A stretch of DNA of 64,000 nucleotides from a virus (lineage: Duplodnaviria > Caudoviricetes), in the IMG/VR virus record IMGVR_UViG_3300046467_000865, positions 14,366 to 78,365 of that record; one strand, written 5' to 3'. The position numbers and the translations under genes were made by a program. The notes under the pieces are model-generated. The model searched no databases. It worked only from the letters and a program-made list of their open reading frames with translations, and had not been told where the DNA came from. This document shows positions 928-41,003 of this stretch, piece after piece; within the stretch, counting starts at the first letter, position 1; the number at the start of each line of letters is the position of its first letter.

Positions 928-2607
928 TCATATCTGGAAAACTTTTTTCACCACAAACCCATCGTAGGACTGAGAACGTCTTTTTCCTTTTGAGTCAGAC
1001 CTTCCACCATGGAGTAGGACGGTGTTGCCTTCATATAGCAAAGCCTTGTTATTTTTCCATTCGTCTGAAAAAACTGTAATATTGTCTAGAGCGCCACTAC
1101 CATCTTCTACGCTTAAGAAGCCCATTTTTTGTCCCTTGGACCTACCTCTTTTAACTGTATATTCGTTTGCTCGCGCAATTTGTATGGCTAAAATTATATT
1201 ACCATCCTTGCCATCAAAAAACTCTTTACATGTGCAATTGGAGGCGCTGGTGTCGCAAGCGTCTACTTCTGAATAAGTTAATGATATTCCCAGATATTCT
1301 TTTTCAGTATTAGACACCCAACTAGGACTATCGTCCAAAGAATAAGGTGGGTTTTCAATAAGAAGAACTAAGTCTGAAACGAGTTCACTTCTAGTCACGT
1401 TAAAAGTTCCACCGCCTAATTTTTTAGTAGGCGCAAGCATCTTTAAAGCACTTGATAATTCTCCCCATTGATCTCGCCTCTCTACAATCCACTCTCTCTC
1501 TTTGTCTGTAAGTTTTTGCCAAGTCTCTAGCTCATAAAGCATCTTGTTTCTAGAGATCTTAAAATGAGACAATGCGCCAACTGATATGAGAGCCGTAATA
1601 ACCCTTGCGTTAATCTTGTGAGACGCATTAACCAAAAACTCGTACCACACCCAATCTACAACAGGCTTGCCAAGCTCCACTTCTATACTATCTATAGTTT
1701 CCAACAGTTTTTCTACATGCTTGACCCCAACAGACTTAATATCGTTGAACCCAAAATTGATTACATTATTTTTAATGCCAAACTTTGCAGACATGTTTGT
1801 CAGGGATGGTGGGGTTACATCTATTCCAGAAAGTTTGGCGTCTGTCACCAGATCACGTATTTCCGATTGTGTGTCCTGCTTCCCATCTGCAAAAAATAAA
1901 TAGCTGCAATAGAAATTTACTGGAAAGTGAGCCTTTGCGTAAGCAGACCAATATCCGCATATGGCGTAAGAAACAGCATGACTTTTGTTGAAAGCGTACC
2001 TGTTGGATTTTTCGATCCACCCAAAAATTTCTTCGGCAACTTCGTCAGTAACGATTCCTTCCCTAGAAGCCCCCTCTATAAAAGACTCCTTTACTTGAGA
2101 CATCAAGCCAGCTTGCTTTTTGCCGATAGCCTTTCTCAAGTTGTCTGCTTGTTGTAGATCAAACCCGGCAATAACTTGCGCTATTTGCATGCTTTGTTCT
2201 TGATACACAAGAACGCCTTGAGTAGACTTCAGAGTCGGCTCCAAAGAATCGTGTAGATAGGCAACGTCTTCCAGACCATTTTTTCTATCTACATAATGCT
2301 GGGTCATTGACTTACCGTCAATAATAGCTTTTAGACATCCGGGTCTGATGAGAGCTATGAGAGCAGCAAGCTCTTCAATATTTCGTGGGCGTATTCTTTT
2401 GGCCCAAGATTTTCCTAAATTACTCTCTAGTTGGAATACCCCTTTGGTTCTTCCAGCAGATATTAGATCCCAAGTCTTGTCACAATCGTATCCACATTGG
2501 TTAATGTCAAATTCCGTAGATGGTAACCCAGTTTGGGATAAAGTGACAGGGTGGTCTGGATCTAAAACCCCGAAAGAGCACCCGCAATCAAATTCGTAAT
2601 TTTTCAT
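928..2607 (-). CDS. dnaE: DNA polymerase III alpha, C-terminal half (fingers, HhH, OB fold)
   Basis: Motifs TKGVFQLES, LIALIRPG, GVLVYQEQ, ADNLRKAIGKK, YAFNKSHAVSY, FGFNDIKSVG and a C-terminal OB fold; no PHP domain or catalytic Asp residues. Confidence 0.95.
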   Translation of the reverse strand: MKNYEFDCGCSFGVLDPDHPVTLSQTGLPSTEFDINQCGYDCDKTWDLISAGRTKGVFQLESNLGKSWAKRIRPRNIEELAALIALIRPGCLKAIIDGKSMTQHYVDRKNGLEDVAYLHDSLEPTLKSTQGVLVYQEQSMQIAQVIAGFDLQQADNLRKAIGKKQAGLMSQVKESFIEGASREGIVTDEVAEEIFGWIEKSNRYAFNKSHAVSYAICGYWSAYAKAHFPVNFYCSYLFFADGKQDTQSEIRDLVTDAKLSGIDVTPPSLTNMSAKFGIKNNVINFGFNDIKSVGVKHVEKLLETIDSIEVELGKPVVDWVWYEFLVNASHKINARVITALISVGALSHFKISRNKMLYELETWQKLTDKEREWIVERRDQWGELSSALKMLAPTKKLGGGTFNVTRSELVSDLVLLIENPPYSLDDSPSWVSNTEKEYLGISLTYSEVDACDTSASNCTCKEFFDGKDGNIILAIQIARANEYTVKRGRSKGQKMGFLSVEDGSGALDNITVFSDEWKNNKALLYEGNTVLLHGGRSDSKGKRRSQSYDGFVVKKVFQI

Positions 2608-3268
2608 CGGCTAGAGCCTTTTCAAACTGAACTTTTGGGGCAAACAGTCTATACAATTTGAGAAATTTAATCAAAACGGTGGCGGTGTCTTTGACATCTT
2701 GTAGAGCGTCGTGGGCGTTGTCTTTGGGGATTCCCATCCAATCACGAATGGAGTCCATGCTGACGCTTCTGATATCGGGATTGTTTTCGGTCCACATAAA
2801 CACATTTCGCATCAAATCCATACGATGGATAGGATGAAACAACGATTGCACGTTTCTCTTTTTATCTAATGGCCCGTGTTCTTGACATAACCTTTCTGCT
2901 ATAATCATGTCAAAATTTTCTATATTATGACCGGCGGCTATGGGGGCCGTCCAGCTAGTTTTTTTGAAGTTGAATTTTTCAATATACTTGTTAAATCTAT
3001 GCCAGACGGTTTTGGGGTGCGGTGCTTTTGCGAGTTCTGATCTAGTTTTTTTATTAATCGCAAGAGCCTCCTCTTCTAAGGGGTCAAGACCCGCCGCAAT
3101 CGCGTCCTCATCTTTAAGTGGCTTAATTAGAGATTCAAAATAACCATTAGGTTGTACTGTTAATTTACGACCATGTATCATAACGGCAGCGATTTGTACC
3201 GGCTGCGTAGTACGCGGATTTCTACTTCCGGTTTCAAAATCAAACACGCAAATATCATTATAGTTCAT
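2588..3268 (-). CDS. DEDDh 3'-5' exonuclease (DnaQ/epsilon-like)
   Basis: ExoI VFDFETG, ExoII GHNIENFD, ExoIII HDALQDV. Confidence 0.9.
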   Translation of the reverse strand: MNYNDICVFDFETGSRNPRTTQPVQIAAVMIHGRKLTVQPNGYFESLIKPLKDEDAIAAGLDPLEEEALAINKKTRSELAKAPHPKTVWHRFNKYIEKFNFKKTSWTAPIAAGHNIENFDMIIAERLCQEHGPLDKKRNVQSLFHPIHRMDLMRNVFMWTENNPDIRSVSMDSIRDWMGIPKDNAHDALQDVKDTATVLIKFLKLYRLFAPKVQFEKALADEKLRI

Positions 3269-4352
3269 TCTTATCCTCGTTTTCGCCTACCAATATATTC
3301 ATTTTTTCATTAAACTTCTCGAAGTCTATATCATGATATCTCACACACTTTCTTTCGTCAAAATTACCCTCCGCTAACAAATAAGCGCCGCACGCTGTAG
3401 GCAAACCGGTAGATCTTTGCATGGCTGAAAATCCGCCTTGTGGCGGTATTAACAACTCCTGTATTTTGTCGTCTATGGAAATGTATATTAGTACACAATC
3501 TTCGCCATTATCAAACTTGCACTTTCTTAAGAAAATTTCTTTCAGCAAGTCTCTATCTAGTTCAATCCCATTAATTAAGAGGTCTACAGTTTTTGCATGT
3601 CCGGGCCATCTAAGAGTGCGATACGAAACATTGACCGCTCCAAGATCCTTCATTCTTTGAATAGTGTGCGAAGACCCCCCGCTTGTATAGAAACCCTCTA
3701 GATCCCCTAGAGATTTAGTACTTATTTTTGTATAGCCGCCCAAAGAATTGTAAGTGGTTTCTTCCCCATTTTCTAAGACAGCGCAGCTTTCTGTATATTC
3801 ATTCAGAAGACCTTCTACCGACCATGTGCAATAGTAGTTGAAATGGTCATTCTTGTTGTAGAGCCTTGGTATGCCGCCAACCATAATAGATACGGTTTCA
3901 GGATTCTTGTCTTCTTGATCAGCAATTTGTTTATAAAAAGCCTCTGCTAATATGTTTGCTAAACCCGGAGCAAGCCCTATGTCAGTCATCACGGGCTTTG
4001 ACGCAAACTTAGAAGCGAAGTCGTTTATCTCGTTGCTTATTTCAACGTTCCCACCAAGATCACAATATCTTATGCCGTTTTTAATACAGTGTTTTGCTAG
4101 GATTAAATTTTTGTGGTAAGGAAGAGAGGAGACAACCACGTCTGGATACGGTCGCCCTAGACTGTTTGGAAGATCCAAACTTTCTGGGTTTGTTATAGTC
4201 CGTAGTTCTGCGTCTTGCTCAAGTATGCTATTGCATTTTTGCAAAGACTCTGAAGAAACATCTATTAAAATTAGGTGGTCGCAACCTAGTTTCTCCACAG
4301 CCCATGCTATGGGTTTCCCCATTCTACCGCAACCGAAAATAGCCACTTTCAT
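3258..4352 (-). CDS. saccharopine dehydrogenase-family enzyme, lysine 6-dehydrogenase (LysDH)-like
   Basis: Rossmann GCGRMG, YCDLGGN, IGLAPGLAN, VGGIP, TWSVEGLLNEY, LEGFYTSGG, YRTLRWPGH, matching the bacterial/archaeal LysDH type of the family. Confidence 0.8.
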   Translation of the reverse strand: MKVAIFGCGRMGKPIAWAVEKLGCDHLILIDVSSESLQKCNSILEQDAELRTITNPESLDLPNSLGRPYPDVVVSSLPYHKNLILAKHCIKNGIRYCDLGGNVEISNEINDFASKFASKPVMTDIGLAPGLANILAEAFYKQIADQEDKNPETVSIMVGGIPRLYNKNDHFNYYCTWSVEGLLNEYTESCAVLENGEETTYNSLGGYTKISTKSLGDLEGFYTSGGSSHTIQRMKDLGAVNVSYRTLRWPGHAKTVDLLINGIELDRDLLKEIFLRKCKFDNGEDCVLIYISIDDKIQELLIPPQGGFSAMQRSTGLPTACGAYLLAEGNFDERKCVRYHDIDFEKFNEKMNILVGENEDKNEL

Positions 4353-5188
4353 TGCACTGCTCTTCCTTTAAGATCTTCCCAGTCTTTTTCTGGTCTGACC
4401 ACCAAGTTGGTGTCCCACGCCCCAATTAGAGTGTTGGGAGATATTCCAAAGTCTGCTGCGTGTTGTATGATAGCGTTGAGATCTTTTGGAAAACAACTTC
4501 CGCCGAACCCAAGATTTCCATCTGGGCCGGGAACTGACCAGTGAGAGTCCCCCAGTCGCTCGTCGTGTATAGCATACTCGACCACCTTGTCGTAGTCAAC
4601 CCCGTTCTCCTCGCACATGGCGGCGAATTCGTTTGCTAGCGATACTTTGACAGCTAGGAAACAATTGGTAAGATATTTGACATATTCTGCGATAGTTGAA
4701 TCTGTTTTTATAATAGACGCTTTAGGAAAAACATTTGCGTAGAATGATCTCAATCTTGTGGTTGCTGGCCTAGGACCGCCCAAAATAACACGAGTAGTAT
4801 TACGAAAATCTTCCGCTGCGTTTCTTTCCAGTAAGAATTCTGGATTGAACACAATTTGTGAATCTGCGCACATTTCGTTTAGATATTTTGTTGTGCCGGG
4901 AGGAACAGTGGATTTGATTACTATAATGTTTCTTCTACCGGTTTTACAAGCGGATATACATACCTGCTCTACTATCGACGTGTCACAAGAACCATCTGGT
5001 TTCATCGGGGTCGGCACACACACGAAGACCACGTCGCAATCATAGGCTAGATGCTGTACAGACTTATGGGTGGATAAGTGTTTATGCGCTTTGTCATAAG
5101 TATACACTCTGTTGTAACAGGAGAAAACTTCGGTTAGCGCCGATCCTACAAAGCCCTGTCCTACTATTCCCACTGTTCTTATTTTCAT
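4349..5188 (-). CDS. UDP-glucose/GDP-mannose 6-dehydrogenase, lacking the C-terminal UDP-binding domain
   Basis: GQGFVG, FVCVPTP, IKSTVPPGTT, FNPEFL, KYLTNCFLAVKVSLANE, GFGGSCFPKD. Start moved to ATG 5188 (ATGA overlap with lat stop). Confidence 0.85.
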   Translation of the reverse strand: MKIRTVGIVGQGFVGSALTEVFSCYNRVYTYDKAHKHLSTHKSVQHLAYDCDVVFVCVPTPMKPDGSCDTSIVEQVCISACKTGRRNIIVIKSTVPPGTTKYLNEMCADSQIVFNPEFLLERNAAEDFRNTTRVILGGPRPATTRLRSFYANVFPKASIIKTDSTIAEYVKYLTNCFLAVKVSLANEFAAMCEENGVDYDKVVEYAIHDERLGDSHWSVPGPDGNLGFGGSCFPKDLNAIIQHAADFGISPNTLIGAWDTNLVVRPEKDWEDLKGRAVQ

Positions 5189-6393
5189 AGATTTTCTATA
5201 GCCTCTTTTATATATTGACACGCTGCACTCGCATCCTCTTCAGAGAATGTAAGAGCGGGCCTAAGTCTAATTGATCTACTGCCGCACTTTAATACGAGCA
5301 TATTTTCTTGTAACAACTCTACCGCTCTATCACGTAGTTCCGACGATGGCAGATCAAACGCTATCATAAGTCCCCTACCACGAACATTCTCAATTACAGA
5401 AAACGTTCTTAATTCCCATAGCAGTTGGCGACCGACATCGTGGGCGTTTTTAACTAGATCATTGCGCTGAATGGCGTCTATTATATATTTGAATCGAACC
5501 ATGTCTACAATATTGCCACCCCATGTAGAATTTATTCTACCACTAGTATTGAAGACGTTGTGTTTGACTTCATCAATTCTCTCAGTGGAACAAAAGCCAC
5601 ACACTTGAGTTTTTTTACCAAAGCACATCATGTCTGGCACAACACCAAAGTGCTCATAGGACCACATTTTACCAGTCAAGCCCATGCCGGTTTGCACTTC
5701 GTCAAAGATAAGTAAACAGTCTCGTTCGTCGGCTATGCGTCTTATATTTGTAAAAAACTCTGGCGGAAAATGGTTATCTCCACCCTCGCCCTGTATCGGC
5801 TCTATGATAATCGCAGCAACTTCTTCGTGGACACGACGTTCGATATTTTCCCAATCAGGCTCTACGGTAGTCCAGCTAAATTTTGGAAATAAAGAGGTCT
5901 TCTCTGGAGTTGTGTTGGTCAAAGACAGGGTGTAGCCTGTTCTGCCATGGAAAGCGTTTTTAAGGTGAAATATATCTAGATTGTTGATGTCAGACGTGTG
6001 AGTATATTTTAGTTTTTGTGCCTTCCAGTCAAAAGCAGCCTTTAAAGCATTCTCTACGCCCAAGGCGCCGCCCTCAATAAAAAAGTAGTACTTAAAATCG
6101 GGGGTAATCTCAGAGAACTTTTCTACAAAATCTGCATATTCCTCTGAGTACATGTCGCTGTTAGCCAGTTTTACCCGGCCAGCATAGCCCATTTCTGATT
6201 GGGCTTTAATCAGTGCTGAGTGCTTCCAGCCAAGAGACTGGCTTGCAAATTGTGAATAGCAGTCTAAATATTTCTTTCCCGTATTTAAGTCTACAATCCA
6301 ACTGCCAAAACTTTTTTGATGATCCACAACAACATGAAAGCCGTCTACAAGGATATATTTTTCAAGAGTTTCTATAGCCTTAGCGTTAGACAT
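5185..6393 (-). CDS. lat: L-lysine 6-aminotransferase (class III PLP)
   Basis: FFIEGGALGVENALKAAFDWK, AFHGRTGYTLSLTNT, FPKFSW, EPIQGEGGD, LIFDEVQTG, FGKKTQVCG and INSTWGGN closely follow mycobacterial/Streptomyces Lat. Confidence 0.92.
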   Translation of the reverse strand: MSNAKAIETLEKYILVDGFHVVVDHQKSFGSWIVDLNTGKKYLDCYSQFASQSLGWKHSALIKAQSEMGYAGRVKLANSDMYSEEYADFVEKFSEITPDFKYYFFIEGGALGVENALKAAFDWKAQKLKYTHTSDINNLDIFHLKNAFHGRTGYTLSLTNTTPEKTSLFPKFSWTTVEPDWENIERRVHEEVAAIIIEPIQGEGGDNHFPPEFFTNIRRIADERDCLLIFDEVQTGMGLTGKMWSYEHFGVVPDMMCFGKKTQVCGFCSTERIDEVKHNVFNTSGRINSTWGGNIVDMVRFKYIIDAIQRNDLVKNAHDVGRQLLWELRTFSVIENVRGRGLMIAFDLPSSELRDRAVELLQENMLVLKCGSRSIRLRPALTFSEEDASAACQYIKEAIENL

Positions 6394-7172
6394 TTAATAG
6401 CTCCTCCAGATTTCACAAATTCTGACATATCGCATATAGATGTTTTTTTACCAGAAAACGACAAGGAAAACATATCTGATGGGGTCACAACCGTTTCGTT
6501 GATTTCAATACTGTTACAAAGAAAATCTTGAGCTTGTTCTTCATGAATACTCAGAATGTCAAGAACTCCGATATCATGGCCGATGTCCACAAACTTATCA
6601 ATCATCCAAGCTTGCGAAGAACTGGAGAAAGCGTCTTTATAATAGACAACCCTGCCGTTCATTGGAAAGAAGCATGTGTCAAGGTGGTAAAATCTTGGAT
6701 CAACAAGTTCACAAGACACATAGTCAACGCCAAGAGCGCCTGCTATTATACTGTGTGCCTCTATATCCGTTCTAAAACCATACCCCATGAACAGAACGTC
6801 GTTTAGAAAAAGAGCGTCTCCCTCTCCTTCAAAACATATATGGTCTGGTATTTCAATGACCCTGTAGCCCCTTTTTAAAAACCAGTCTTTGAAGAACCAT
6901 TTTTCATGCTGTCTTTCTTTATGTCTAAAGTTTGACAGTATGACATTTTTCCCATATACAAGACCCGCGTTAGCCGTAAATACCATATCTGGGTATCCAC
7001 GCTCGGGTTCTATATACCTGAGATTTGCACCGGCTTTGATCAACCGGTCACACATCCTGTGCCACTGATTGGCCGCAATTTCTCCTTCAACGCCTAAGTT
7101 GAGATCCATCCAAGGGTTGATTTCATAATCTATGTTAAAATGTGTTGGCTTACACACTAAAAGATCAGTCAT
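6372..7172 (-). CDS. amidinotransferase (guanidino-group modifying) family, arginine dihydrolase ArgZ/AgrE N-domain-like
   Basis: INPWM, PDMVFTANAGL, KERQ, FEGEGD, GYGFRT, FYHLDTCF, SEFVKSGGAIKCLTLR; Glu-His-Cys triad positions present. Confidence 0.85.
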   Translation of the reverse strand: MTDLLVCKPTHFNIDYEINPWMDLNLGVEGEIAANQWHRMCDRLIKAGANLRYIEPERGYPDMVFTANAGLVYGKNVILSNFRHKERQHEKWFFKDWFLKRGYRVIEIPDHICFEGEGDALFLNDVLFMGYGFRTDIEAHSIIAGALGVDYVSCELVDPRFYHLDTCFFPMNGRVVYYKDAFSSSSQAWMIDKFVDIGHDIGVLDILSIHEEQAQDFLCNSIEINETVVTPSDMFSLSFSGKKTSICDMSEFVKSGGAIKCLTLRL

Positions 7173-8658
7173 CTACACCAGTCTTCATACCTTGTGGGAA
7201 ACTGAGAGAGTCTCCATGATTTACAGTCCAAGCAACCTCGTGGGTAACCGATCTAAACGTGCGAGCAGCACTAGGCTGACCATTGCCAGACTTCTTCACC
7301 CCTCCAAATCCGAGATGAGATTCAGCAGCAATGCTGCCGCCATTCCAATAACCAAGACCAAAGTCACACTCGTCGCGAATCCTTCTCGCCACCTTGAAGT
7401 TTTCTGTTACCACACCTAGAGCAAGCCCATAATCAGTGTCGTTGTAAATCCTAATAGCATCATCAACTGTATCGTAAGGAATAATTGATACATGAGGTCC
7501 AAACACCTCTTGCTTAAGATATGGAACATCTCTCCATTCCGTTTGATATACCGTAGGTGTTAAGAGTAGACTGTCGCCGTCTCGTTTTCCCATGAGCAGA
7601 ACATCTGCCTCTGGGTCTGCTTCAACCATCTCGTTGAACTCTATGACTCTTTCGAGTTGCTTTTCGTTAATAAGAGGTCCGTAAAAGGTGTTGTCGTCAA
7701 ATGGGTCTCCAGTCTGTAGATCACCGCTTCTGTTAGCAAATTCGTCCGCAAATTTATTGTATAAAGAGCGGTGGACAATCAACCTGCTAGCAGACACACA
7801 GCGTTGACCAGATAGTTTGTAAGCGCTGGCCAAGCATGCGGCCATTGCCAGATCATAATTTGCGTCTTCATGGATGATTACCGCTGATTTACTTCCCATT
7901 TCGCAAGAACAAGTTTTATGCCAGCTTTCTGCACACACTTTGCGAACGTGCATGCCAACATCGGCGCTTCCGGTAAAACACACATGATCTATATCACCTT
8001 TGATAAGTCTATCTCCAACCTCTCCGTCTCCATGAATCATATTGAAGACTCCGGGTGGGAATCCAGCAGCTTCATATAACTCTGCTGTTATTTGCCCAGC
8101 CCAAGATACATCTTCGCTTGGCTTTAGAACCACAGTATTGCCTTCAACCAAAGCTGGACCAGCACACCAGAAGCCACCAATAGCAAAAGGAAAGTTAAAA
8201 GGAGCAACAATAGCAATAACACCCTTTGGTTTCCTAAGCATGTACGCATCTTTTTCGGGTAACTCCGACGCAATCGCTTCTCCATAAGGCATTCTTCCTG
8301 TGCTAAAAGCGTATTGAGCCATATGCAAAGCTTCGTTGACTTCTGCAATAGACTCGTTTAATACTTTTCCAGTTTCCAAACTAATGATAGAAGCTATTCG
8401 ATTAATATTTTTTTCTACTAGTTCTGCGAGCTTGAAAAAATATCCTGCACGCTGATATCTGCTAAAAGAACGCCAACCATCAAAAGCGTCACGAGCAAAA
8501 GCGCACGCAGAATCAACCGCCGCAGAAGAAGCTTGGGGAAACGCACCTAAAATTTTCCCATCGGCTGGGTTCTTGCTATCAAACAAAGAGTCGTCTGAGC
8601 CAGAGACCCATTGATTGTTAATAAAGTGCTTTCCTTCTACGATTTGATAAGTGGTCAT
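7165..8658 (-). CDS. NAD(P)+-dependent aldehyde dehydrogenase
   Basis: PFNFP, LKPSE, FTGSADVG, EMGSKS, GQRCVS (catalytic Cys), EVFGP, FGGVKKSG. Start moved to ATG 8658 (ATGA overlap with the VOC gene). Confidence 0.93.
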   Translation of the reverse strand: MTTYQIVEGKHFINNQWVSGSDDSLFDSKNPADGKILGAFPQASSAAVDSACAFARDAFDGWRSFSRYQRAGYFFKLAELVEKNINRIASIISLETGKVLNESIAEVNEALHMAQYAFSTGRMPYGEAIASELPEKDAYMLRKPKGVIAIVAPFNFPFAIGGFWCAGPALVEGNTVVLKPSEDVSWAGQITAELYEAAGFPPGVFNMIHGDGEVGDRLIKGDIDHVCFTGSADVGMHVRKVCAESWHKTCSCEMGSKSAVIIHEDANYDLAMAACLASAYKLSGQRCVSASRLIVHRSLYNKFADEFANRSGDLQTGDPFDDNTFYGPLINEKQLERVIEFNEMVEADPEADVLLMGKRDGDSLLLTPTVYQTEWRDVPYLKQEVFGPHVSIIPYDTVDDAIRIYNDTDYGLALGVVTENFKVARRIRDECDFGLGYWNGGSIAAESHLGFGGVKKSGNGQPSAARTFRSVTHEVAWTVNHGDSLSFPQGMKTGVDD

Positions 8659-9239
8659 TTTACTTCCTTTGTAGATTCCATTAAGTGCTTGACCGAATTT
8701 TGACAAAACCCCTTGTGTCCTCTTTCTATTAACTCTACTATAATTCCGCCCATTACATTTAGAGGCTTGGTGAATATTTGTTTTAGGTCGTCCTCTGGAC
8801 AATCGATAACTTCTTCTGTTAAAAATTCTACATCAAGCTCTTTCCACTCTTTAACAATCTTGTTTATGTTCTTAACAGAATAAGCCATATGGTGAATCCC
8901 ACCACCATTTCTAGCTTTCACCCAATCTCCAACTATAGAGCCTTCACTTCCGTCGCTAATAAAGATTTCTGGAGCAAGATGATAGTTGGTGTCGTGGGAG
9001 GGGGAAAATAAAACCCATGGTGGGTCCATGTGGCTCAATCGCACCGGTCTATCTTTGGAAGGAGGACTCGGGCGCTTTCTGGTTCTTTCTGGAGGAGTCA
9101 TGACTATGCACTCGGCAGTGGATCCATCGTCGAACTTTATGTCAAATTCTGTCCCAACAACGTAACCAAACGTTTGTTTTATAAACTGGGCTGTTTCGTG
9201 TCTGCTGGATACTCTATAGGCTATATGGTCTAACCTCAT
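8655..9239 (-). CDS. VOC/glyoxalase-superfamily protein resembling the HPPD C-terminal domain
   Basis: LDHIAY, GGIHHMAY, LKQIFTKP, IVELIER followed by GF; His/His/Glu metal ligands. Confidence 0.75.
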   Translation of the reverse strand: MRLDHIAYRVSSRHETAQFIKQTFGYVVGTEFDIKFDDGSTAECIVMTPPERTRKRPSPPSKDRPVRLSHMDPPWVLFSPSHDTNYHLAPEIFISDGSEGSIVGDWVKARNGGGIHHMAYSVKNINKIVKEWKELDVEFLTEEVIDCPEDDLKQIFTKPLNVMGGIIVELIERGHKGFCQNSVKHLMESTKEVK

Positions 9240-9463
9240 CCGTATAATCTCTTTTTTATTTCTAAGTACTTTTTAACAGCCTTTGGTAACTCATCATTGT
9301 TATATAATTGAGAAAATCTAGCTCTATAATCACTGCAATCTACTTGAAATTTTTTGCTTTTTAGTTGTGGATAGTAATCATTCAAGCAGCATAATGAAAG
9401 TTGATTACATTCGACAGCCGACCCATCTCGCAGTGTTGATTCATAAACTAGTTGATTAGTCAT
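9236..9463 (-). CDS. hypothetical protein
   Basis: 75-aa ORF with ATGA overlaps at both ends. Confidence 0.55.
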   Translation of the reverse strand: MTNQLVYESTLRDGSAVECNQLSLCCLNDYYPQLKSKKFQVDCSDYRARFSQLYNNDELPKAVKKYLEIKKRLYG

Positions 9464-11379
9464 TTTATAATTCCATTTTTTAGTTGATAAGATACTCCCA
9501 TAATTTTGTCCAAAAAGCTAATTCCAAGTATATCAAACTTCACATGCCCCATTGCTTCCAAATCCTCCATTTCGAGTCCAGCAATCTTGTCTGAACCTCT
9601 TTTTTCGCGCACCATGGGGCACACTTGGTTTAAGTTTTCCGAAGAAATTACAACGCCAGCAGCATGCTTGCCTTGAGATTTGTAAGTGCCTTCCAACCGA
9701 ATGGCTTGTTCAAAAAGCTTACCAAGATCTCCACCAAGACTGCCGTCTTCATTCACGATACACCAATCCTTCAGATCATTTGGTTGATTAATTAGTGCCC
9801 ATCTAATGATAGAAGGATCTTCCATATCCTGTAGCTGGTCAGATATTTCAGCTTCAGATGGAATATTCTTTGTTATTTCGTTCATCTCAGCATAGCTGCA
9901 AGAATCGTGAACTCTTAAAACCTCTTTCAAAGCAGTGCGCCCTTGCATTCTACCGAACGTTATCATCTGTCCGACTTGTTCTTTTCCATAAGACTCTTTC
10001 ATGTAATTGATTACCGACTCTCTTTTTGCAGTCGGAACGTCAATATCAATATCAGGCAAAGAAACCCTGCCGTCTGCATTGCGCCCTGCGTTGTAGAATC
10101 TTTCAAAAATTAAATCATGCTGAATTGGGTCTACCTTTGTTATACCAATCAGATAGGAAATAAGACAACCTGCGGCAGAGCCTCTGCCCGGACCCGGAAG
10201 CCATCCATTTTTTTTCACGTTGTCAACAATGTCTTGAACTATCAAAAAATATCCTGAGAGATTAGCGCCTTGTATTACAGACAACTCCTGTTTTATTCTT
10301 TTTGCATATGTTTCATTTTTGGATGGATCTGAAACCACTCCGGTTAGCTGTAGCTTGTGTTTCCAACCCTCCCTACACAGATGCCTAAGATATTCATCTT
10401 CAGACATTTCATTTGGGCAAGGAAATCTGGGAAGCATTGGTTTGCCAAGAATATTGTATTCTTCGCACATATCTGCAACCAACCTTGTGTTAGCTATTTC
10501 TGACTCAGAGTTGATCGCAGAGATTTCTTCTTGGGAGGGAATATGATATCTGTTAGATTTAAAGAACACACCAAGTCCGACATCCTCGTGGTTGTCAAGT
10601 TTTCGCTGCACTTCTTTGAGCGTAGTTCGCATAGCTGAACACAGAAGGATTCTTTGGTCAGCGGCGTCTTCCATGGATGGGTAATGGGAATCCGCTGTAG
10701 CTATGCATGGTATGCCAGTTTGTTTGCTTATGTATCTTAAAGCCTCCGCAGTTACGGTTTGTGCGGGAGACATCTCTTGATCAATTAGTTGTATCTCAAG
10801 GAAAAAGTTGTCCTTTCCAAATATCTCTCTGTATTTTTCAGCAAGCTGGGTTGTTTTGCTGACCCAATCTGGATCAACAAAAGATTTTGCTTGTTCATAG
10901 GTGTTAGACCGGTAAGCAGATTTATAGTCCGAAAAGATAATATTAGACAGTTGGCTACCTAGGTGTCCAGAAAAGCTGATCAAATCCCCGTTACAGTATT
11001 CAGCCAGAGTGTCTAAATCAAGGCGTGGTTTGTGATAGAACACCTCCTCGTCATTACTAGCAGAGGTTGCTTCTATAAGCTTACACCAGCCATCAAAGTT
11101 TTTAGCCAGCACAACCAAGTGGCTTAGCTGTCTATTTTCCTTGTCTTTTATACACGGGTCTTGCTCGCATAAATAGAACTCACAACCCAATATAGGTTTG
11201 ATATTCTTTTTTTGCATCTCTTTGACGAATGAAACGGCTCCAGAAATCGTGCCGTGATCGGTGATGGCGCAAGCGTCGTACCCAAGGGTCTCACAGCGCT
11301 CTGCGACTTGCGAAGGCTTTGAGAGGCCGTCTAACAAGCTGTAGTGTGTGTGCAAGTGTAGCGGAATCCAACTCGACAT
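9460..11379 (-). CDS. dnaE: DNA polymerase III alpha, N-terminal half (PHP + palm/thumb)
   Basis: HLHTHYSLLDG, TDHG, GCEFY, TADSHY, GPGRGSAAGCL, SLPDIDID (catalytic Asps), GKHAAGVVI, KFDILG; ends shortly after this last motif. Confidence 0.95.
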   Translation of the reverse strand: MSSWIPLHLHTHYSLLDGLSKPSQVAERCETLGYDACAITDHGTISGAVSFVKEMQKKNIKPILGCEFYLCEQDPCIKDKENRQLSHLVVLAKNFDGWCKLIEATSASNDEEVFYHKPRLDLDTLAEYCNGDLISFSGHLGSQLSNIIFSDYKSAYRSNTYEQAKSFVDPDWVSKTTQLAEKYREIFGKDNFFLEIQLIDQEMSPAQTVTAEALRYISKQTGIPCIATADSHYPSMEDAADQRILLCSAMRTTLKEVQRKLDNHEDVGLGVFFKSNRYHIPSQEEISAINSESEIANTRLVADMCEEYNILGKPMLPRFPCPNEMSEDEYLRHLCREGWKHKLQLTGVVSDPSKNETYAKRIKQELSVIQGANLSGYFLIVQDIVDNVKKNGWLPGPGRGSAAGCLISYLIGITKVDPIQHDLIFERFYNAGRNADGRVSLPDIDIDVPTAKRESVINYMKESYGKEQVGQMITFGRMQGRTALKEVLRVHDSCSYAEMNEITKNIPSEAEISDQLQDMEDPSIIRWALINQPNDLKDWCIVNEDGSLGGDLGKLFEQAIRLEGTYKSQGKHAAGVVISSENLNQVCPMVREKRGSDKIAGLEMEDLEAMGHVKFDILGISFLDKIMGVSYQLKNGIIK

Positions 11380-11381
11380 TT

Positions 11382-11912
11382 TCAGTGTCCTACGGGGTCA
11401 AGATCCTTGTACGGCAGATTGTGACAATCAGTAGAAACCTTCCAGCCATTAGAAGGGTCTATGTCACCCTTTGCATAGAAACGAGCCTGTTCAAAATATT
11501 CCTTTGCGTCTTTTTGTCCGCAAACCCAAGCTCTAACAGGCTTATTTCCCTCAAACTGAATGCTTGTAAAAATATATATGTCTGGTTTTTGATGCGCACT
11601 AGTTTCCGCTACAGAGGCGTCGTAATAGTCTCTAGGAGGAACGGTCCTGCGCTTGGACTTAACCTCTATCTTTTTTTTACCTTTTATCAAATCGTGGTTG
11701 TATTTTTCTTCGCCCTCGTTGTTACTGATTATCTCGGCTTGGATATAATTGGCGACAATTTCCTCACCGAGATAACCAGCAAAATTTCCTTTGCCCTTGA
11801 GAATAGAATTATTTATCTTACCTAAATTTTTAGCCTTAGCTTGAGCGCTACTTACCATTTGTTCAGTAAATGGCACTTCTACGAGATTACTTTTTTTGGT
11901 TGAACTTTTCAT
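11382..11912 (-). CDS. putative PD-(D/E)XK endonuclease-like protein
   Basis: GYLGE...NHDL...IEVKSK pattern; likely start ATG 11912. Confidence 0.5.
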   Translation of the reverse strand: MKSSTKKSNLVEVPFTEQMVSSAQAKAKNLGKINNSILKGKGNFAGYLGEEIVANYIQAEIISNNEGEEKYNHDLIKGKKKIEVKSKRRTVPPRDYYDASVAETSAHQKPDIYIFTSIQFEGNKPVRAWVCGQKDAKEYFEQARFYAKGDIDPSNGWKVSTDCHNLPYKDLDPVGH

Positions 11913-12831
11913 AAATGTATCGCGCTGTCGCAACGTCCTCTATAGCTAGTCCTGTGGCATCAAATAGCGTGGTCCGACATCCGCTTGTCTCTACTCTGCC
12001 TTGAATCACTTCTGCTATCGGACACCATATCTGCGAAATCTTACTCTTCTTAGCATACTGTATCTCTCCAGAGTGGGAGCATTGGACCCACTCATCATAC
12101 GCAACGAGATCTACGTTTTCAAGAACGCACTGGTGGAGTTCTCTTTTTCCTTCTGCGTCTGCTCCAACAGCATTAATATGGACTACTGGTTTTAGGTATC
12201 TGTATTTAATAAATGGTTTACGTGAAGGAGTCAACGTTGTAACTATATCCACGTCCCACAAACAATTTTCAAGATCGTTGTGTACTTCTATTTCTATGGG
12301 ACTCTCTTGTCTGACTTCTAAATAATTCAAATCATCTTTTAACTTATTTGCTCGATCTTCACTAAGATCAAACAGCCGAATAACTTCAATGTCTCTTACA
12401 GAAAGCACCGCTTCTATTTGTCTAAGTGTTTGATTTCCACAGCCGATAAATGCCGCTTTTTTGGAGTACTTGGGAGATAGATGTTTAGTTGCGACTCCCG
12501 TCACTGCGGCGGTACGAATAGCGGTAAGAGTTTCTGCGTCTAGAATAGCTAGCAGATCTCCAGTTTCGATATCATTGATCATCACCATAGCAAAGATGTT
12601 GATCTTGCCAGCTTCCTTGATGTTGAGTCCAGCCCATTTGATTCCTGCTGTATTGCCTACTACCGCTGGCATTGCTCGAAAGTCCCCGTTTGGGACATTC
12701 ATATATACCTTTGGTGGCATTTGCGTATTGTCAATGTTTTTAAATAGGTCTTCTACAAGTTCTATACAGGCTGGTACTGAGAGTAAATCCGCTACTTCAT
12801 CATTGGTAAAATATTTAACCGGGAGCATCAT
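11887..12831 (-). CDS. ornithine cyclodeaminase/mu-crystallin family protein (archaeal-type alanine dehydrogenase-like)
   Basis: MPPKVY, GDFRAMPA, AGIKW, LTAIRTAA, GCGNQ, INAVGADAEGKREL, LFDATGLAIEDVA. Confidence 0.88.
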   Translation of the reverse strand: MMLPVKYFTNDEVADLLSVPACIELVEDLFKNIDNTQMPPKVYMNVPNGDFRAMPAVVGNTAGIKWAGLNIKEAGKINIFAMVMINDIETGDLLAILDAETLTAIRTAAVTGVATKHLSPKYSKKAAFIGCGNQTLRQIEAVLSVRDIEVIRLFDLSEDRANKLKDDLNYLEVRQESPIEIEVHNDLENCLWDVDIVTTLTPSRKPFIKYRYLKPVVHINAVGADAEGKRELHQCVLENVDLVAYDEWVQCSHSGEIQYAKKSKISQIWCPIAEVIQGRVETSGCRTTLFDATGLAIEDVATARYIYEKFNQKK

Positions 12832-23924: not shown

Positions 23925-23998
23925 TACCCTCGACAGGACTCGAACCTGTAACCTACGGTTTAGAAGACCGTTGCTCTATCCTGTTGAGCTACGAAGGC
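23925..23998 (-). tRNA. tRNA-Arg, anticodon TCT; CCA not encoded
   Basis: GCCTTCG/CGAGGGT acceptor stem, D arm, anticodon arm ACGGT-CTTCTAA-ACCGT, T arm ACAGG-TTCGAGT-CCTGT. Confidence 0.97.
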
Positions 23999-29422: not shown

Positions 29423-30334
29423 CTATACCTCTAATATTTCTAAACCGTGAACACAGTGTTTAATGTCTTCCTCTATCTGTAGATATTTAACATACTCACA
29501 CTTATTCATGTCAAATACTAGCAAGCGAGCGGGAGACGAACCTATTATAGCATAATTTCCACTTCTAGTCAACCCCCTATTCCAGTTATTTTCCGCGATC
29601 TTATCCGCTGAAAATTTAGCGAAACCCGCAGGTGGAACTGGAAAGAATGTTTGTTTCCCATCCTTGATAATTCCTATATGTTTTAAGCTCGTCATATTTA
29701 TTAACAAGCAGTCGTCATACTCATAAAAATTGTGTTGAAAACTTTTTACCCCATTGATAGAGGGCATAGGTTCTACAACTTGCATAGTTTCAAAGTCATA
29801 TAAATGTGTTATAAGCGCAGAAAAAACCAATCTATCAGAAAAGGCAGAAATTGAGTTGATATGATATTTATCATCAGGTATAGCTTCTTCAGGATCTATT
29901 TGTCTTTTACCTGTGAATACCTTGTGGTCTTCTTTGCTTTCTCCTAAGATTTCCCAAAACTCAATAATGTTGAGGTCTAGGTCAAGCTTGACTATTGCGT
30001 CATACCCAGTAGACGTTACCCAGATATGACCATCAAAGTAACAAATTTCATGTATGGATTTGAAAAAATCTCTATCTTGTTTTTTGTTTATTATTTCGTA
30101 GGTTTGTTTGTCTAGCTCTATCAACCCACTGGAGTCAGCAACAAAGATTCTATCTTCCGCGACGGCAATCCCGCGCAAGCCTCTCTCACCGCCTCTCTCA
30201 TTCTCGTTGTCGAACTCTCCCACATACGGGATATATTTTATGATTTCATCGTTGTCAACGTCAACAACATATAGGCCACCATGTACGGAGCCTTTTTCAG
30301 CGGCTCGTATAACTGTCGAGCAAATTACTTTCAT
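29423..30334 (-). CDS. beta-propeller protein (DUF4915/TIGR03032-like)
   Basis: Repeated beta blades; LRGIA, IHEI, HINSI, WNRGL. Confidence 0.55.
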   Translation of the reverse strand: MKVICSTVIRAAEKGSVHGGLYVVDVDNDEIIKYIPYVGEFDNENERGGERGLRGIAVAEDRIFVADSSGLIELDKQTYEIINKKQDRDFFKSIHEICYFDGHIWVTSTGYDAIVKLDLDLNIIEFWEILGESKEDHKVFTGKRQIDPEEAIPDDKYHINSISAFSDRLVFSALITHLYDFETMQVVEPMPSINGVKSFQHNFYEYDDCLLINMTSLKHIGIIKDGKQTFFPVPPAGFAKFSADKIAENNWNRGLTRSGNYAIIGSSPARLLVFDMNKCEYVKYLQIEEDIKHCVHGLEILEV

Positions 30335-31268
30335 TGAACCAGCCTATTGTGTTTTCTAGACCTTCCTTCAGACCCACGACCGCTTTGAATCCAAAAGAGG
30401 ATTCCGCCATACTTGTATCTAAACATCTCCTCGGCTGTCCGTCTGGTTTAGCTGAGTCAAATATGATCTCTCCTTGATAGCCAACTATTTGACCTATAAA
30501 AACGGCTAGCTCTTTGATTGTTATTTCTTTTCCGGTCCCTATATTTACGGGGTAGGGATCGTCATATTGTTCTAGAGCCATGACAATTGCATCAGCGCAA
30601 TCATCTACGTATAAAAACTCCCTACTGGCGTTGCCGCTGCCCCAGACTACTACTTCTTTGTCGTTATTGGCTTTTGCCTGTTTAAACTTGAGTATCAGAG
30701 CGGGTATTACATGACTGCTGTTTGGGTCGAAGTTGTCGCCGGGGCCATACATATTAACAGGGATTAAAGTTATCCCATTTAAGCCGTATTGATTTCTGTA
30801 TGCCTGAAGCATCTCCATCAGAGCTTTTTTAGCTACTCCATACGGAGCATTCGTTTCCTCTGGATACCCATTCCATATATCAGACTCTTTAAATGGGACG
30901 GGTGTGAATTTTGGATAAGAGCAAACCGTGCTGGTAAGTAGAAACTTTTTGCAATTATGTTTTCTTGCTTCTTCTATCAGATTAAGACCCATAGCCATGT
31001 TGTCGTAAAAAAACCTTCCGGGGTTCTCTTTATTCGCTCCAATACCACCAACCCTAGCAGCTAAATGCACCACTATATCAGGTTTATGACGGTAAAATAA
31101 ATTCGCTACATCTACATGCCTAGTCAGGTCAAGAGACATTGGCGCGCGAGAACCCGGAAGGTCTATTACGTTAGCGTATCCAGAAGACTTTAGTTGATTG
31201 CAGACAACTCTTCCTAAAAAACCTTGCCCACCCGTAACAACAATCCTATCCGTCTTCTTGATTTTCAT
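30297..31268 (-). CDS. fcl: GDP-L-fucose synthase
   Basis: TGGQGFLG, HLAARVGGIGAN, YGVAKK, PVNMYGP, SHVIPAL, WGSGNASREFLYVDD, KPDGQPRR. Confidence 0.95.
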   Translation of the reverse strand: MKIKKTDRIVVTGGQGFLGRVVCNQLKSSGYANVIDLPGSRAPMSLDLTRHVDVANLFYRHKPDIVVHLAARVGGIGANKENPGRFFYDNMAMGLNLIEEARKHNCKKFLLTSTVCSYPKFTPVPFKESDIWNGYPEETNAPYGVAKKALMEMLQAYRNQYGLNGITLIPVNMYGPGDNFDPNSSHVIPALILKFKQAKANNDKEVVVWGSGNASREFLYVDDCADAIVMALEQYDDPYPVNIGTGKEITIKELAVFIGQIVGYQGEIIFDSAKPDGQPRRCLDTSMAESSFGFKAVVGLKEGLENTIGWFNESNLLDSYTSR

Positions 31269-31489: not shown

Positions 31490-31834
31490 TCAGAGAGGTC
31501 CGTCCTTAGTTAGCGTATATTCCGTATTAGGTGACCCTGCATTTGAACAAGATGGACACATGGCAATTTTTTGGGCCTTATGCATTTCAAGTTGGTGTTG
31601 AATTTTTAAAGCTTGTTGAAGTATGACGGTGTCCCTCATGACTGCTTGCCTATTAGAATTATTAATAGCGGAGGCTAAAGCCGCAGTCTCGGTAAGCGAC
31701 TTGGGAGAAGCCGACACATTCGATTTTTTAGGAAGCACTTCAAAGTAGTATACGGTCAGACCTATATTGACTATTGTGCAAACTAAAAAAGCTATAAATA
31801 TGCTATTTGCGCTTGATCGCATTTTTTTCACCAC
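31490..31834 (-). CDS. single-TM membrane protein
   Basis: N-terminal TM, helical ectodomain, CPSC. Confidence 0.5.
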   Translation of the reverse strand: MVKKMRSSANSIFIAFLVCTIVNIGLTVYYFEVLPKKSNVSASPKSLTETAALASAINNSNRQAVMRDTVILQQALKIQHQLEMHKAQKIAMCPSCSNAGSPNTEYTLTKDGPL

Positions 31835-32750
31835 TTCTTAGAGGAAGCACTGGGAATTTAACAGAGTCTTTAGTGACCTTAGTACCGGGCGTAGTTTTAG
31901 ACCTTGGCCCTTCTGCTGATAAGGTTTGAAGCTCTTTAATAGAGGGGACTTTAACGTCTGTGTCAATAGCCCACAAAACACCCTCTGCCTTAGCGTAGGC
32001 TCTCATTCTCCTTACGGGAACGACCAGATTAAAAGTCTCACCAGCGCCTCGCACAAGCATTCCGACATACTGACCCGCCTTTTCCTTGCTACGTTCGCTA
32101 AGGAATACTCCACCACCACTGGACCCCGGAAAAGCCGTCACTGTGGTTTGATCGAAGACTACACCATCTCCAGTCCCCAAGTCAAGAACTCTTCCAACTT
32201 GAGAGCAAATCCCTCTCGTCATCGAGTTACTGCCTACTTGGCCTAGTAAAGAGCCGACATGATATAGCTCAGTACCAATAGCTACTGGTTTACCTGCGTT
32301 CTTGTAGAAAGTGGTGCTCTTGTCAACAAAACCTTTCTTTCTAACCATCAAGAGAGCCAAGTCTTCTCCGTTTTCAGCATCGGAGTATTTAATTACTTTG
32401 GCTTCCATCTTGAACTCGCCAACACGGCGGCCATCCTCAACCAATTCTTTAACAATTTGAGCGTCCTTGAACTCAACAATTGTTTGAGGCTTTCCATCTT
32501 TGATGACAATTCTAACCGATCTAAGGCCATCAACAACATGCGCTGCCGTCCAGACAAAATTAACCTTCTGCTTGACGTTTGGAGAAGTTTCGACCTCCCT
32601 CGTTACAATAACACCAGAGCCTTCTCCACCCGCCGCCTTTACGGTGACGGAAACGTCTTGCAGATGTTGATAGAGTACATTGTCCTGTGCATTTGTAGTT
32701 GTAACAAACATGGATACAACTAGCGTAGCTATCCACATAACCTTCATCAT
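31803..32750 (-). CDS. secreted trypsin-like serine protease
   Basis: Signal peptide; catalytic triad AAHVV / EDLALL / PGSSGGG. Confidence 0.88.
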   Translation of the reverse strand: MMKVMWIATLVVSMFVTTTNAQDNVLYQHLQDVSVTVKAAGGEGSGVIVTREVETSPNVKQKVNFVWTAAHVVDGLRSVRIVIKDGKPQTIVEFKDAQIVKELVEDGRRVGEFKMEAKVIKYSDAENGEDLALLMVRKKGFVDKSTTFYKNAGKPVAIGTELYHVGSLLGQVGSNSMTRGICSQVGRVLDLGTGDGVVFDQTTVTAFPGSSGGGVFLSERSKEKAGQYVGMLVRGAGETFNLVVPVRRMRAYAKAEGVLWAIDTDVKVPSIKELQTLSAEGPRSKTTPGTKVTKDSVKFPVLPLRSGEKNAIKRK

Positions 32751-35585: not shown

Positions 35586-35596
35586 TGTTGCGTTCC

Positions 35597-35683
35597 TCAA
35601 TCGCTCTTGACCTTCGTCATAGCGCCTAAAATTATCAGTGAAATTGCAAATCCTAAGATAATGATTCCTAAATCCTGTAGCAT
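35597..35683 (-). CDS. 28-aa single-TM peptide (not in ORF track)
   Basis: MLQDLGIIILGFAISLIILGAMTKVKSD; fills the gap exactly after the upstream TAG. Confidence 0.4.
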   Translation of the reverse strand: MLQDLGIIILGFAISLIILGAMTKVKSD

Positions 35684-36271
35684 CTACCAATCCTTTTGGA
35701 TGGTAAACTTATATTCGAAAAGACATGACCTTGCTAGGTCCGCAGGTGTTACCGCGCTGTCAGCTAGGTACGGAACAGGATCTAAATAAGCCTGCCTGTA
35801 AGCATAAACAACGGCTGTGCTGCAAACGAATACGTTTGTCGGATCGTTGTCTTTTGTATTTTGCTCTGCTAATCTGCAAAACGGCAAGTAGTGTTTTCCT
35901 ATTTTCCAGAAGTTTGTCCAGCCGTATGGCAAGCCAGTAATACTCCCCATGACATCCGTTATTTCGTTGCGAACATCTTTTGTGAGTTTGTAGCCCTTGC
36001 CATCAAATTCAATGTAATCAGCCGCTTTGAATACATCAATGTTATTAGGATGTGTTTCAACCTGAGATTTCATGGAGACGGCTCTTCCGCCTTGAAATTC
36101 TCTAAATTCCACACACTGTAGATCATTATCATCCCAATGCGCCATTCCAGCATGGCTGTGAACTCCGCTGCCATAACGTTTAATAAGCCAAGAAATTAGT
36201 CCCTCGCCGCGAAACAGTAAAACATCTGCCTCTTCGATTTGGGATACTGCTTCGCGGTAAGGGACTAACAT
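35684..36271 (-). CDS. permuted papain-like (NlpC/P60, YaeF/YiiX) amidase
   Basis: ADVLLFR, HSHAGM (His) before VCSTAV (Cys), VTPADL. Confidence 0.78.
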   Translation of the reverse strand: MLVPYREAVSQIEEADVLLFRGEGLISWLIKRYGSGVHSHAGMAHWDDNDLQCVEFREFQGGRAVSMKSQVETHPNNIDVFKAADYIEFDGKGYKLTKDVRNEITDVMGSITGLPYGWTNFWKIGKHYLPFCRLAEQNTKDNDPTNVFVCSTAVVYAYRQAYLDPVPYLADSAVTPADLARSCLFEYKFTIQKDW

Positions 36272-40500: not shown

Positions 40501-41003
40501 GTGTCGCTTTTCTTTTCGTCGTTTTCTGTGACTTTTTTGACCTTCTTTTCGGGCACTACCGGCTTCAGGTCTTCGGGTCTTGTTCCCGGTTCTTTTCCTT
40601 TTCCGGCTCCGTTGTGAGCGACGGCATCTTTCTTTACGGGAACACACTTGCCGTCTTTTTCAACATACCCCTCGTTGCAGTTGGGGGGATACCCAGCCTT
40701 TTTATCGGCGTAAGACTCTGATGTTCTATTTAGAATATGATCAGACATAGTTTCACCTCTCGTTCTTTTTTTAAATATTAAAGTTCTTCCCTTTTTTCTA
40801 TACACACCCCTTCTGGAATAGTAAAAGAGTTCTCCAGTCTTGGGGTCTTCATATTCATAAGCACCCTTAGACTTATTCTCCCACTTACTGTTACAGAAAG
40901 CGACTCTTTGTTTTGAATCTGGAAAATCTCTCTTAGCTTCTTCGCTTGACATACATCGTGATATGTAGTCTTTTTTTTGTTCGCTTTTACGTGGAGACGG
41001 CAT
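40497..41003 (-). CDS. hypothetical modular protein
   Basis: YISRCM...QRVAFC module and a PPNC...KC module; internal SD GAGGTG before MSDH suggests a second start. Confidence 0.5.
   Translation of the reverse strand: MPSPRKSEQKKDYISRCMSSEEAKRDFPDSKQRVAFCNSKWENKSKGAYEYEDPKTGELFYYSRRGVYRKKGRTLIFKKRTRGETMSDHILNRTSESYADKKAGYPPNCNEGYVEKDGKCVPVKKDAVAHNGAGKGKEPGTRPEDLKPVVPEKKVKKVTENDEKKSDT

Follow-up and report, generated by a model that had tools for sequence, protein, structure and literature searches.

The closest described systems to the genes examined here are cellular routes of arginine and lysine breakdown. In cyanobacteria, ArgZ (Sll1336) or AgrE (Alr4995) together with PutA takes arginine through ornithine and proline to glutamate, and the arginase (Roc) pathway of Bacillus uses RocF, RocD and RocA to pass from arginine through ornithine and glutamate semialdehyde to glutamate. 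Lysine is broken down by the lat-pcd pathway in Mycobacterium, Streptomyces and Flavobacterium. It is well established that phages carry auxiliary genes for photosynthesis, phosphate and nucleotide metabolism; our full-text searches found no paper on a multi-enzyme viral route by which basic amino acids give up their nitrogen. Viral polyamine and amino-acid auxiliary genes do act on arginine and ornithine, and they include a viral arginase (PMC9992855). Here we analyse 64,000 nucleotides (nt) of an uncultured marine phage (Duplodnaviria; Caudoviricetes; IMG/VR record IMGVR_UViG_3300046467_000865, positions 14,366 to 78,365), hereafter the window, which carry a block of genes for an aldehyde dehydrogenase (ALDH), an ArgZ-like hydrolase, a LAT-family aminotransferase and their neighbours. 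We lean, by a small degree, towards a reading in which this conserved viral auxiliary-metabolic block would break down basic amino acids and free their nitrogen. Each enzyme of the cassette is a member of a known superfamily, and the combination in a virus would be the new element.

The likeness to each described system is partial. The phage hydrolase domain is homologous to that of ArgZ and AgrE and retains both the catalytic Cys and the TAN-motif Asn, and the phages likewise encode an enzyme of the ornithine cyclodeaminase (OCD) type and, in one relative, a proline dehydrogenase. However, the phage hydrolase stands alone, falls short of the NCBIfam cut-off (255 vs 450 bits) and has a LAT-family enzyme rather than PutA as its constant neighbour; the phage OCD belongs to the mu-crystallin family and, compared with AgrE, is not of the nickel-pincer-nucleotide (NPN) type. 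The Roc pathway shares the same three-step logic, but the first phage step is predicted to be an ammonia-releasing dihydrolase rather than a urea-releasing enzyme, the aminotransferase is of the LAT type (154 bits with the ornithine aminotransferase model, cut-off 378), and the ALDH reaches 257–276 bits where the cut-offs of RocA-type glutamate semialdehyde dehydrogenases are near 650. As in lat-pcd catabolism, LAT is followed by an ALDH, yet the phage ALDH is not of the ALDH7 type (258 vs 730 bits). By comparison with UDP-glucose 6-dehydrogenase (UGDH), the NAD-binding and central domains and the Cys motif are shared, whereas the phage form is without the C-terminal UDP-binding domain and is largely confined to viruses. 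HglS performs the 2-oxoadipate step of lysine catabolism (PMC7286885); the phage protein with a VOC fold has no Pfam HGLS match and is about half as long as HglS. For the lysine route, no 2-aminoadipate aminotransferase or 2-hydroxyglutarate dehydrogenase was identified. Dihydrolase, saccharopine dehydrogenase, cyclodeaminase and aldehyde dehydrogenase all go unmentioned in the account of viral amino-acid genes cited above, which mentions aminotransferases for decarboxylase folds only (PMC9992855). Our literature search found no description of such a block in viruses, of a virus-specific truncated UGDH or of a small HPPD/HglS-like protein, and the pelagimyophage paper makes no mention of the block.

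Enzyme sets of this type do have precedents, in cellular ArgZ-like operons and in viral pairs of LAT and glutamate dehydrogenase, and these count in favour of the interpretation given in a first-pass annotation of the window, which our analysis supports in part. Among the loci retrieved in our searches (L-numbers), two cellular ones (L053 and L079) have an ArgZ-like gene beside a true ornithine aminotransferase, three (L071, L073 and L087) are operons of PutA, an NPN-dependent ornithine cyclodeaminase and an ArgZ-like protein, and a verrucomicrobial one (L091) has an ArgZ-like gene beside true lat and pcd. The split PutA-OCD-ArgZ-like operons occur in Planctomycetota and Nitrospirota and represent a split form of AgrE outside cyanobacteria. 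On the viral side, 17 other contigs carry LAT, and 7 of them (L020, L022, L023, L025, L026, L030 and L033), whose lengths, for those noted, reach 261–532 kb, have it 3–4 kb from glutamate dehydrogenase. Paired, the two enzymes amount to an oxidative release of the terminal amino group as ammonia.

Gene content and enzyme families of the block

From position 13837 to position 928, genes follow one another on the minus strand with zero intergenic space; neighbouring frames overlap by 4–47 nt, and a single junction has a 2-nt spacing. This run includes the block of 12 genes listed below in transcription order (aa, amino acids; ORF, open reading frame).

11887 to 12831, minus strand: OCD/mu-crystallin-family enzyme, accessory to the cassette (PF02423, 237 bits)
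11382 to 11933, minus strand: 183-aa ORF of no family (no match in Pfam, NCBIfam or PHROGs)
9460 to 11379, minus strand: N-terminal half of DnaE, upstream flank of the cassette (PHP domain PF02811 and DNA_pol3_alpha PF07733, the Pol III alpha palm)
9236 to 9463, minus strand: 75-aa ORF of no family, its 3' end overlapping the start of the VOC gene by 4 nt
8655 to 9239, minus strand: stand-alone VOC-fold protein resembling the HPPD/HMS/HglS catalytic domain (PF13669)
7165 to 8661, ORF open to 8802, minus strand: NAD(P)-dependent ALDH (PF00171, 416 bits)
6372 to 7172, minus strand: predicted ArgZ/AgrE-like arginine dihydrolase (PDB 6jv0, E 1e-63)
5185 to 6393, minus strand: LAT-family class III aminotransferase (PDB 2cin, E 1e-103)
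4349 to 5188, ORF open to 5221, minus strand: truncated UGDH-like protein (PF03721 and PF00984 only)
3258 to 4352, minus strand: saccharopine-dehydrogenase-family enzyme, accessory to the cassette (PF16653 and PF03435)
2588 to 3268, minus strand: DnaQ/RNase_T-type exonuclease (PF00929)
928 to 2607, minus strand: C-terminal half of DnaE (fingers, HhH and OB domains), downstream flank (PF17657 and PF14579)

Order and strand of the 12 ORFs are as the first-pass annotation described them, according to the ORF list, Pfam and NCBIfam, and profile searches bore out its family labels for 11 of the 12 genes. The label that fell is that of the 183-aa ORF, called a nuclease there. This ORF is conserved at 79–83% in L001, L002, L016 and L018 and absent from L009, and the 75-aa ORF is conserved at 53–61% within the window lineage only. 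We define the core block as the genes for the VOC protein, ALDH, ArgZ-like hydrolase, LAT and truncated UGDH. PHROGs holds no family for the VOC protein, the saccharopine-dehydrogenase-family enzyme or the OCD protein.

Two of the core enzymes can be strongly assigned to families. The aminotransferase had been labelled Lat, and the label is confirmed by its match to the M. tuberculosis enzyme, to which it is ~50% identical, and by five active-site motifs (FHGR, QGEGG, FGKK, NSTWGG and RxRP) kept in 18/18 homologues. They supply the equivalents of Arg170, Glu243, Lys300, Thr330 and Arg422, whose roles are known from structural work on the M. tuberculosis enzyme. With TIGR03251 the protein scores 473.7 bits, close under the cut-off of 520.8, and the runner-up family scores 214. 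Membership of the LAT family is a strong assignment by sequence, and the enzyme would act on ornithine and/or lysine. Its gene overlaps that of the ArgZ-like hydrolase by 22 nt.

The name ArgZ-like also holds. The hydrolase aligns with Synechocystis ArgZ (6jv0) over 263 residues, matches Anabaena AgrE as well at E 1e-63, and has the fold of guanidino-group-modifying enzymes. Across 10 phage sequences Cys261, His163, Asp165 and Glu115 are invariant, Cys261 being the equivalent of catalytic Cys264 in ArgZ. The FTANAGL motif is retained, and its invariant Asn68 corresponds to ArgZ Asn71, the residue changed in PDB 6juz and one with a role in the mechanism. Asp and Arg residues in motifs shared with ArgZ are, we assume from DDAH-type structures, those that bind the alpha-amino and alpha-carboxylate groups. 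The score with NF052232 is 254.9 bits, which falls under the cut-off; we nonetheless consider the dihydrolase a strong assignment on these sequence features. The protein has no fused cyclodeaminase domain. In a quick tree, the 18 phage ArgZ-like proteins form a single clade (SH-aLRT 99), with the gammaproteobacterial L053 gene as a tentative sister, a grouping of two long branches that is possibly artefactual.

The ALDH probably starts at Met48, giving 498 aa as in relatives. The catalytic Cys, general-base Glu, oxyanion Asn and NAD motif are all present: GQxC, ExGxKS, KPSE, FTGS and ExFGP occur in 18/18 homologues and FNFP in 14/18. The first-pass annotation had placed it with the Pcd type; an intact active site upholds the aldehyde dehydrogenase, but the Pcd/ALDH7 type is not sustained by NF050084 (258 bits, cut-off 730). 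Its best NCBIfam model is alpha-ketoglutaric semialdehyde dehydrogenase (308 bits vs a cut-off of 770), and the glutamate semialdehyde dehydrogenase model TIGR01237 gives 257 bits against 660. A homologue 53% identical to it occurs in the huge phage LR756511, which also has a LAT (56%).

The VOC protein had been described as HPPD-like, and it does consist of a stand-alone domain with the fold of HPPD, hydroxymandelate synthase (HMS) and HglS, in which a VOC barrel bears a His-His-Glu metal triad and ends in a gating helix. His5, His116/117 and Glu169 are invariant, as is Arg9 among homologues, a candidate counterpart of the 2-oxoadipate-binding Arg74 of HglS, and C-terminal motifs like those of HPPD align by sequence. 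An AlphaFold model (pLDDT 79) superposes on HMS (PDB 2r5v) over residues 1–194 with a VIA-align Z of 16.7 (157 residues aligned, root-mean-square deviation 2.9), followed by methylmalonyl-CoA epimerase (Z 12.7) and rice HglS (PDB 6w1k, Z 12.6). By sequence the epimerase scores equally well (E 1e-10 vs 2e-9), and the gene contexts of distant homologues are short or uninformative. HMS, HPPD and HglS each decarboxylate and hydroxylate a 2-oxoacid. By analogy, the phage protein may do the same to a 2-oxoacid such as 2-oxoadipate, in an HglS-like step.

The label of UDP-sugar dehydrogenase goes too far: the UGDH-like NAD-binding and central domains and the catalytic Cys are there, and the UDP-binding domain is missing. 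From its probable start at 5188 the protein has 279 aa; GGSCFPKD and NPEF motifs occur in 14/14 sequences, and hundreds of homologues measure 277–293 aa. ESM Atlas clusters of this length class are >90% viral, and one cluster has 3,565 members. A split UGDH with a separate gene for the UDP-binding domain was rejected, since five relatives, including a complete genome, gave zero PF03720 matches. The small HPPD/HglS-like protein and the UGDH without its UDP-binding domain stand for two mostly viral enzyme families whose chemistry is directly testable.

Both accessory enzymes kept their labels. A profile of phage homologues of the saccharopine-dehydrogenase-family protein, previously called lysine dehydrogenase (LysDH)-like, matches P. 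horikoshii PH1688 (PDB 3abi, E 1.6e-37) over residues 1–330, far ahead of saccharopine reductases; no curated model exists. That structure is an archaeal L-lysine 6-dehydrogenase, and the GxGxxG motif is present in 8/8 homologues. For the OCD/AlaDH-family label, the nearest solved structure to the PF02423 protein is alanine dehydrogenase of A. fulgidus (PDB 1omo, E 9e-54), and the protein falls under every NCBIfam equivalog cut-off.

Distribution and genomic contexts

The same synteny was sought in IMG/VR, as the first-pass annotation had proposed. A scan with LAT returned 38 loci, of which 21, from 18 metagenomes, have a LAT at least 62% identical, and in 21/21 of these the ArgZ-like and ALDH genes are adjacent. 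The LysDH-like gene adjoins the cassette in 8 of the 21 relatives' loci. The OCD gene is found elsewhere in the genome in 3/5 records of relatives, in the complete relative G002 at least 100 kb from the cassette, and a proline dehydrogenase occurs in 1/5. Records of one identical UGDH-like protein cover 176 contigs, the longest of 177 kb, and its gene neighbours are the same in those listed. A host-derived operon was rejected: cellular ArgZ-like homologues reach at most 46% identity, and the full block occurs in 0/80 cellular loci.

The block sits in at least three genomic contexts. In the window and in L002, L009, L016 and L018 (with L001 partial) it is flanked by the DnaE N-half on one side and by the exonuclease and DnaE C-half on the other. 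In L003-L013, L037, L038 and L119-L122 it is found off dnaE, between HAD-like and DUF2784 genes beside rIIA/rIIB, and the ALDH and ArgZ-like genes are often separated there by a SET-domain gene. In L014 and L036, a minimal set of ALDH, ArgZ-like and LAT genes lies ~5 kb downstream of a contiguous dnaE_N-exonuclease-dnaE_C. Throughout, gene order and overlapping reading frames of the core are kept among homologues of 48–88% identity, and the block shifts as one unit from site to site in the genome. Compared with two relatives, the window shows 0.08–0.30 non-synonymous differences per site, with synonymous differences saturated at 0.63–0.98; values for the flanking replication genes are much the same, and the pattern points to selection.

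In the window, a metabolic block has entered a naturally split DNA polymerase gene precisely where that gene is broken. DnaE is encoded by two genes there, with no intein-like domain detected. Because the DnaE halves of L014 and L036 are separated by the DnaQ-like exonuclease gene alone, the split with the exonuclease is older than the cassette insertion, and the exonuclease between the halves is the ancestral arrangement. The insertion itself is specific to the window lineage, both because the block occurs in several contexts and because the window keeps homologues of the second context's neighbours, 40–55 kb off, with the block missing from that site. The link to a replication operon drawn in the first-pass annotation is thus true at the window locus, but most relatives have the block elsewhere, and placement in the replication operon is not a defining property of it. 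Lying between the dnaE halves without gaps, the block is probably co-transcribed with replication genes. Promoter-like and terminator-like sites were no more frequent than in shuffled sequence, which neither supports nor refutes a single transcript.

Other genes come and go around the core. A minimal SET-domain gene (~125 aa, lysine methyltransferase-like) lies between the ALDH and ArgZ-like genes in L006, L011, L013 and L119-L122; this insertion inside the cassette marks the most abundant lineage, and the window has its copy elsewhere (59394-59774, minus strand). Class I fructose-bisphosphate aldolase, at 57446-58399 on the minus strand of the window, is directly beside or near LAT in L015, L017 and L019. 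Genes for GT4 and GT47 glycosyltransferases, GlmS, a cytidylyltransferase and a sulfotransferase lie a few kb from the block in most relatives.

Proposed pathway and competing explanations

Under the nitrogen-release reading, the ArgZ-like hydrolase would convert arginine to ornithine, 2 NH3 and CO2. The LAT-family enzyme would then use ornithine, lysine or both as donor of a terminal amino group for 2-oxoglutarate, yielding glutamate and a semialdehyde, and in the window lineage the LysDH-like enzyme would do likewise for lysine with direct release of NH3. The ALDH would oxidise the semialdehyde to glutamate or 2-aminoadipate with formation of NAD(P)H, while a branch through the OCD-family enzyme would turn ornithine into proline or run an alanine-dehydrogenase-type reaction. 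The net effect would be to convert nitrogen-rich amino acids to ammonia and glutamate, which serve nucleotide synthesis as nitrogen donors. The minimal ALDH-ArgZ-like-LAT set of L014 and L036 matches this chain from guanidino group to amine, aldehyde and acid. Family membership, active-site integrity, conservation, block-wise movement and precedents are observed; which substrates are used, which way flux runs, when the genes act and what the phage gains are inferred. A more ambitious version, which we think rather doubtful, is that the five-gene core forms a complete virus-specific route from arginine or lysine carbon to 2-oxoglutarate or glutamate, two of whose steps would fall to enzyme types largely confined to viruses: an HPPD/HglS-like dioxygenase of half size, with an aliphatic 2-oxoacid as substrate, and a UGDH-like dehydrogenase that had shed its nucleotide-binding domain and taken on a different substrate. 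If this five-gene route were real, the block, being common in ocean phages, would provide a way, so far unrecognised, for viruses to release nitrogen in the sea. With the block present in at least 18 marine metagenomes and on >170 contigs, it could affect nitrogen recycling by infected cells in nitrogen-poor water.

Several observations weigh against breakdown for nitrogen. No cassette enzyme reaches an NCBIfam equivalog cut-off, and the ALDH belongs to no curated subfamily, being of neither the ALDH7/Pcd nor the glutamate semialdehyde dehydrogenase type. The ArgZ-like hydrolase scores 218.8 bits (cut-off 300) with a model of M. tuberculosis-type DDAH, and if its product were citrulline, the proposed chain would break. 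LAT-family enzymes have been characterised on lysine rather than ornithine. The VOC protein and truncated UGDH are conserved core genes without a place in the proposed chain. Moreover, the phage would be destroying amino acids needed for its own proteins, and glycosyltransferase genes are close neighbours of the block in most relatives.

This last point fits a biosynthetic role, in which the block would make an amino-acid-derived unit (pipecolate, proline, 2-aminoadipate or an opine-like conjugate) to be put on a glycan, the virion or DNA, with the UGDH-like enzyme in the route. It is favoured by the set of sugar-related genes described above and by the UGDH-like gene travelling with the block, as well as by Ralstonia phage RsoM2USA (L123, genes 2-10), where an ArgZ-like homologue (37%) lies near thymidylate-synthase-like and T4 beta-glucosyltransferase-like genes. 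Still, we judge biosynthesis unlikely: the window homologues of those glycosyltransferases are at least 30 kb from the block, the UGDH-like protein lacks a UDP-binding domain, ALDH reactions are effectively irreversible oxidations, no amino-acid ligase or transferase was seen, and LAT-glutamate dehydrogenase pairs in other viruses point to nitrogen release. ThyX is among the proteins encoded by the window, where we saw no other sign of a modified base. DNA hypermodification, which the RsoM2USA context had raised, was likewise set aside, as nothing in the ThyX-encoding window supports it, though no search was aimed at that pathway's enzymes. Polyamine synthesis was rejected, with zero decarboxylase families among the ~55 window ORFs scanned with Pfam or PHROGs.

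It is also quite unlikely, in our estimation, that no single pathway exists and that independent auxiliary genes have gathered in a variable island. The OCD, LysDH-like, SET-domain and aldolase genes do come and go, the OCD gene lying 100 kb or more away in one relative, and the VOC protein and truncated UGDH fit no proposed step; against this, the core keeps its order and overlapping frames at the identities given above, moves as a block among its contexts, and has the ArgZ-like and ALDH genes adjacent in all 21 loci of the LAT clade. The same chemistry might instead serve another guanidino or amino compound, for example 4-guanidinobutyrate (through GABA and succinate semialdehyde to succinate) or homoarginine (through lysine to 2-aminoadipate). 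Among solved structures, the aminotransferase is closest to LAT and then to GABA aminotransferases (E 2e-45), and the second-best solved relative of the ALDH is succinate-semialdehyde dehydrogenase, with KauB also matching. The hydrolase nevertheless keeps the Asp and Arg that we presume bind an amino acid, and the aminotransferase is ~50% identical to a true LAT; we hold a change of substrate to be improbable. Least credible, and very unlikely, is depletion, by which arginine and lysine would be destroyed so as to halt translation in the host, to set off or dampen its starvation response, or to keep out rival phages. Depletion would account for a virus degrading amino acids that it needs, and the genes are, from their position, probably expressed with early or middle replication genes, but no direct evidence favours it, and an aminotransferase and dehydrogenases conserve carbon and nitrogen.

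Viral setting and other genes of the window

A viral origin of the contig, one of the points on which the first-pass annotation depended, is borne out by rIIA/rIIB and ribonucleotide reductase genes in the window and by the terminase of a 161-kb relative, whose completeness CheckV puts at 100%. The window also encodes PhoH and dUTPase. A chimeric assembly, the other concern raised there, and a chance grouping of genes are contradicted by GC content that is uniform at 0.38–0.46 and by the same arrangement in L002, L009, L016 and L018, which are full-length and from different metagenomes; the fifth contig, L001, ends early and shows the upstream part of the arrangement up to the UGDH-like gene. 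Compared by megablast with 50,697 phage records, the region gave zero matches. Nearly all genes of the whole stretch are on the minus strand, and upstream of the 12 genes Pfam identifies a PD-(D/E)XK nuclease, ThyX, a dNMP kinase, primase, DnaB and RecA.

Additional genes lie further from the block. At 60611-61237 (minus strand) is a PF10014 2OG-Fe dioxygenase and at 61685-62671 (minus strand) an enoyl-CoA hydratase; relatives also encode a 3-hydroxyacyl-CoA dehydrogenase. The interval 40987-48202 (minus strand) holds genes for GT1, GT47-like, methyltransferase, radical SAM, CAP59-like mannosyltransferase, IscA-like and DUF1501 proteins, and an NAD epimerase is encoded at 30297-31268. A full-length tmRNA gene occupies 56623-56955 on the minus strand (Rfam RF00023, 123 bits), with AEPQFALAV as the tag peptide given by ARAGORN, and a tRNA-Arg with anticodon TCT (23925-23998, minus strand) follows directly downstream of PhoH in transcription order. 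Two proteins with trypsin-like peptidase domains, one of them 698 aa long, are encoded at 31803-32750 and 33594-35690 on the minus strand.

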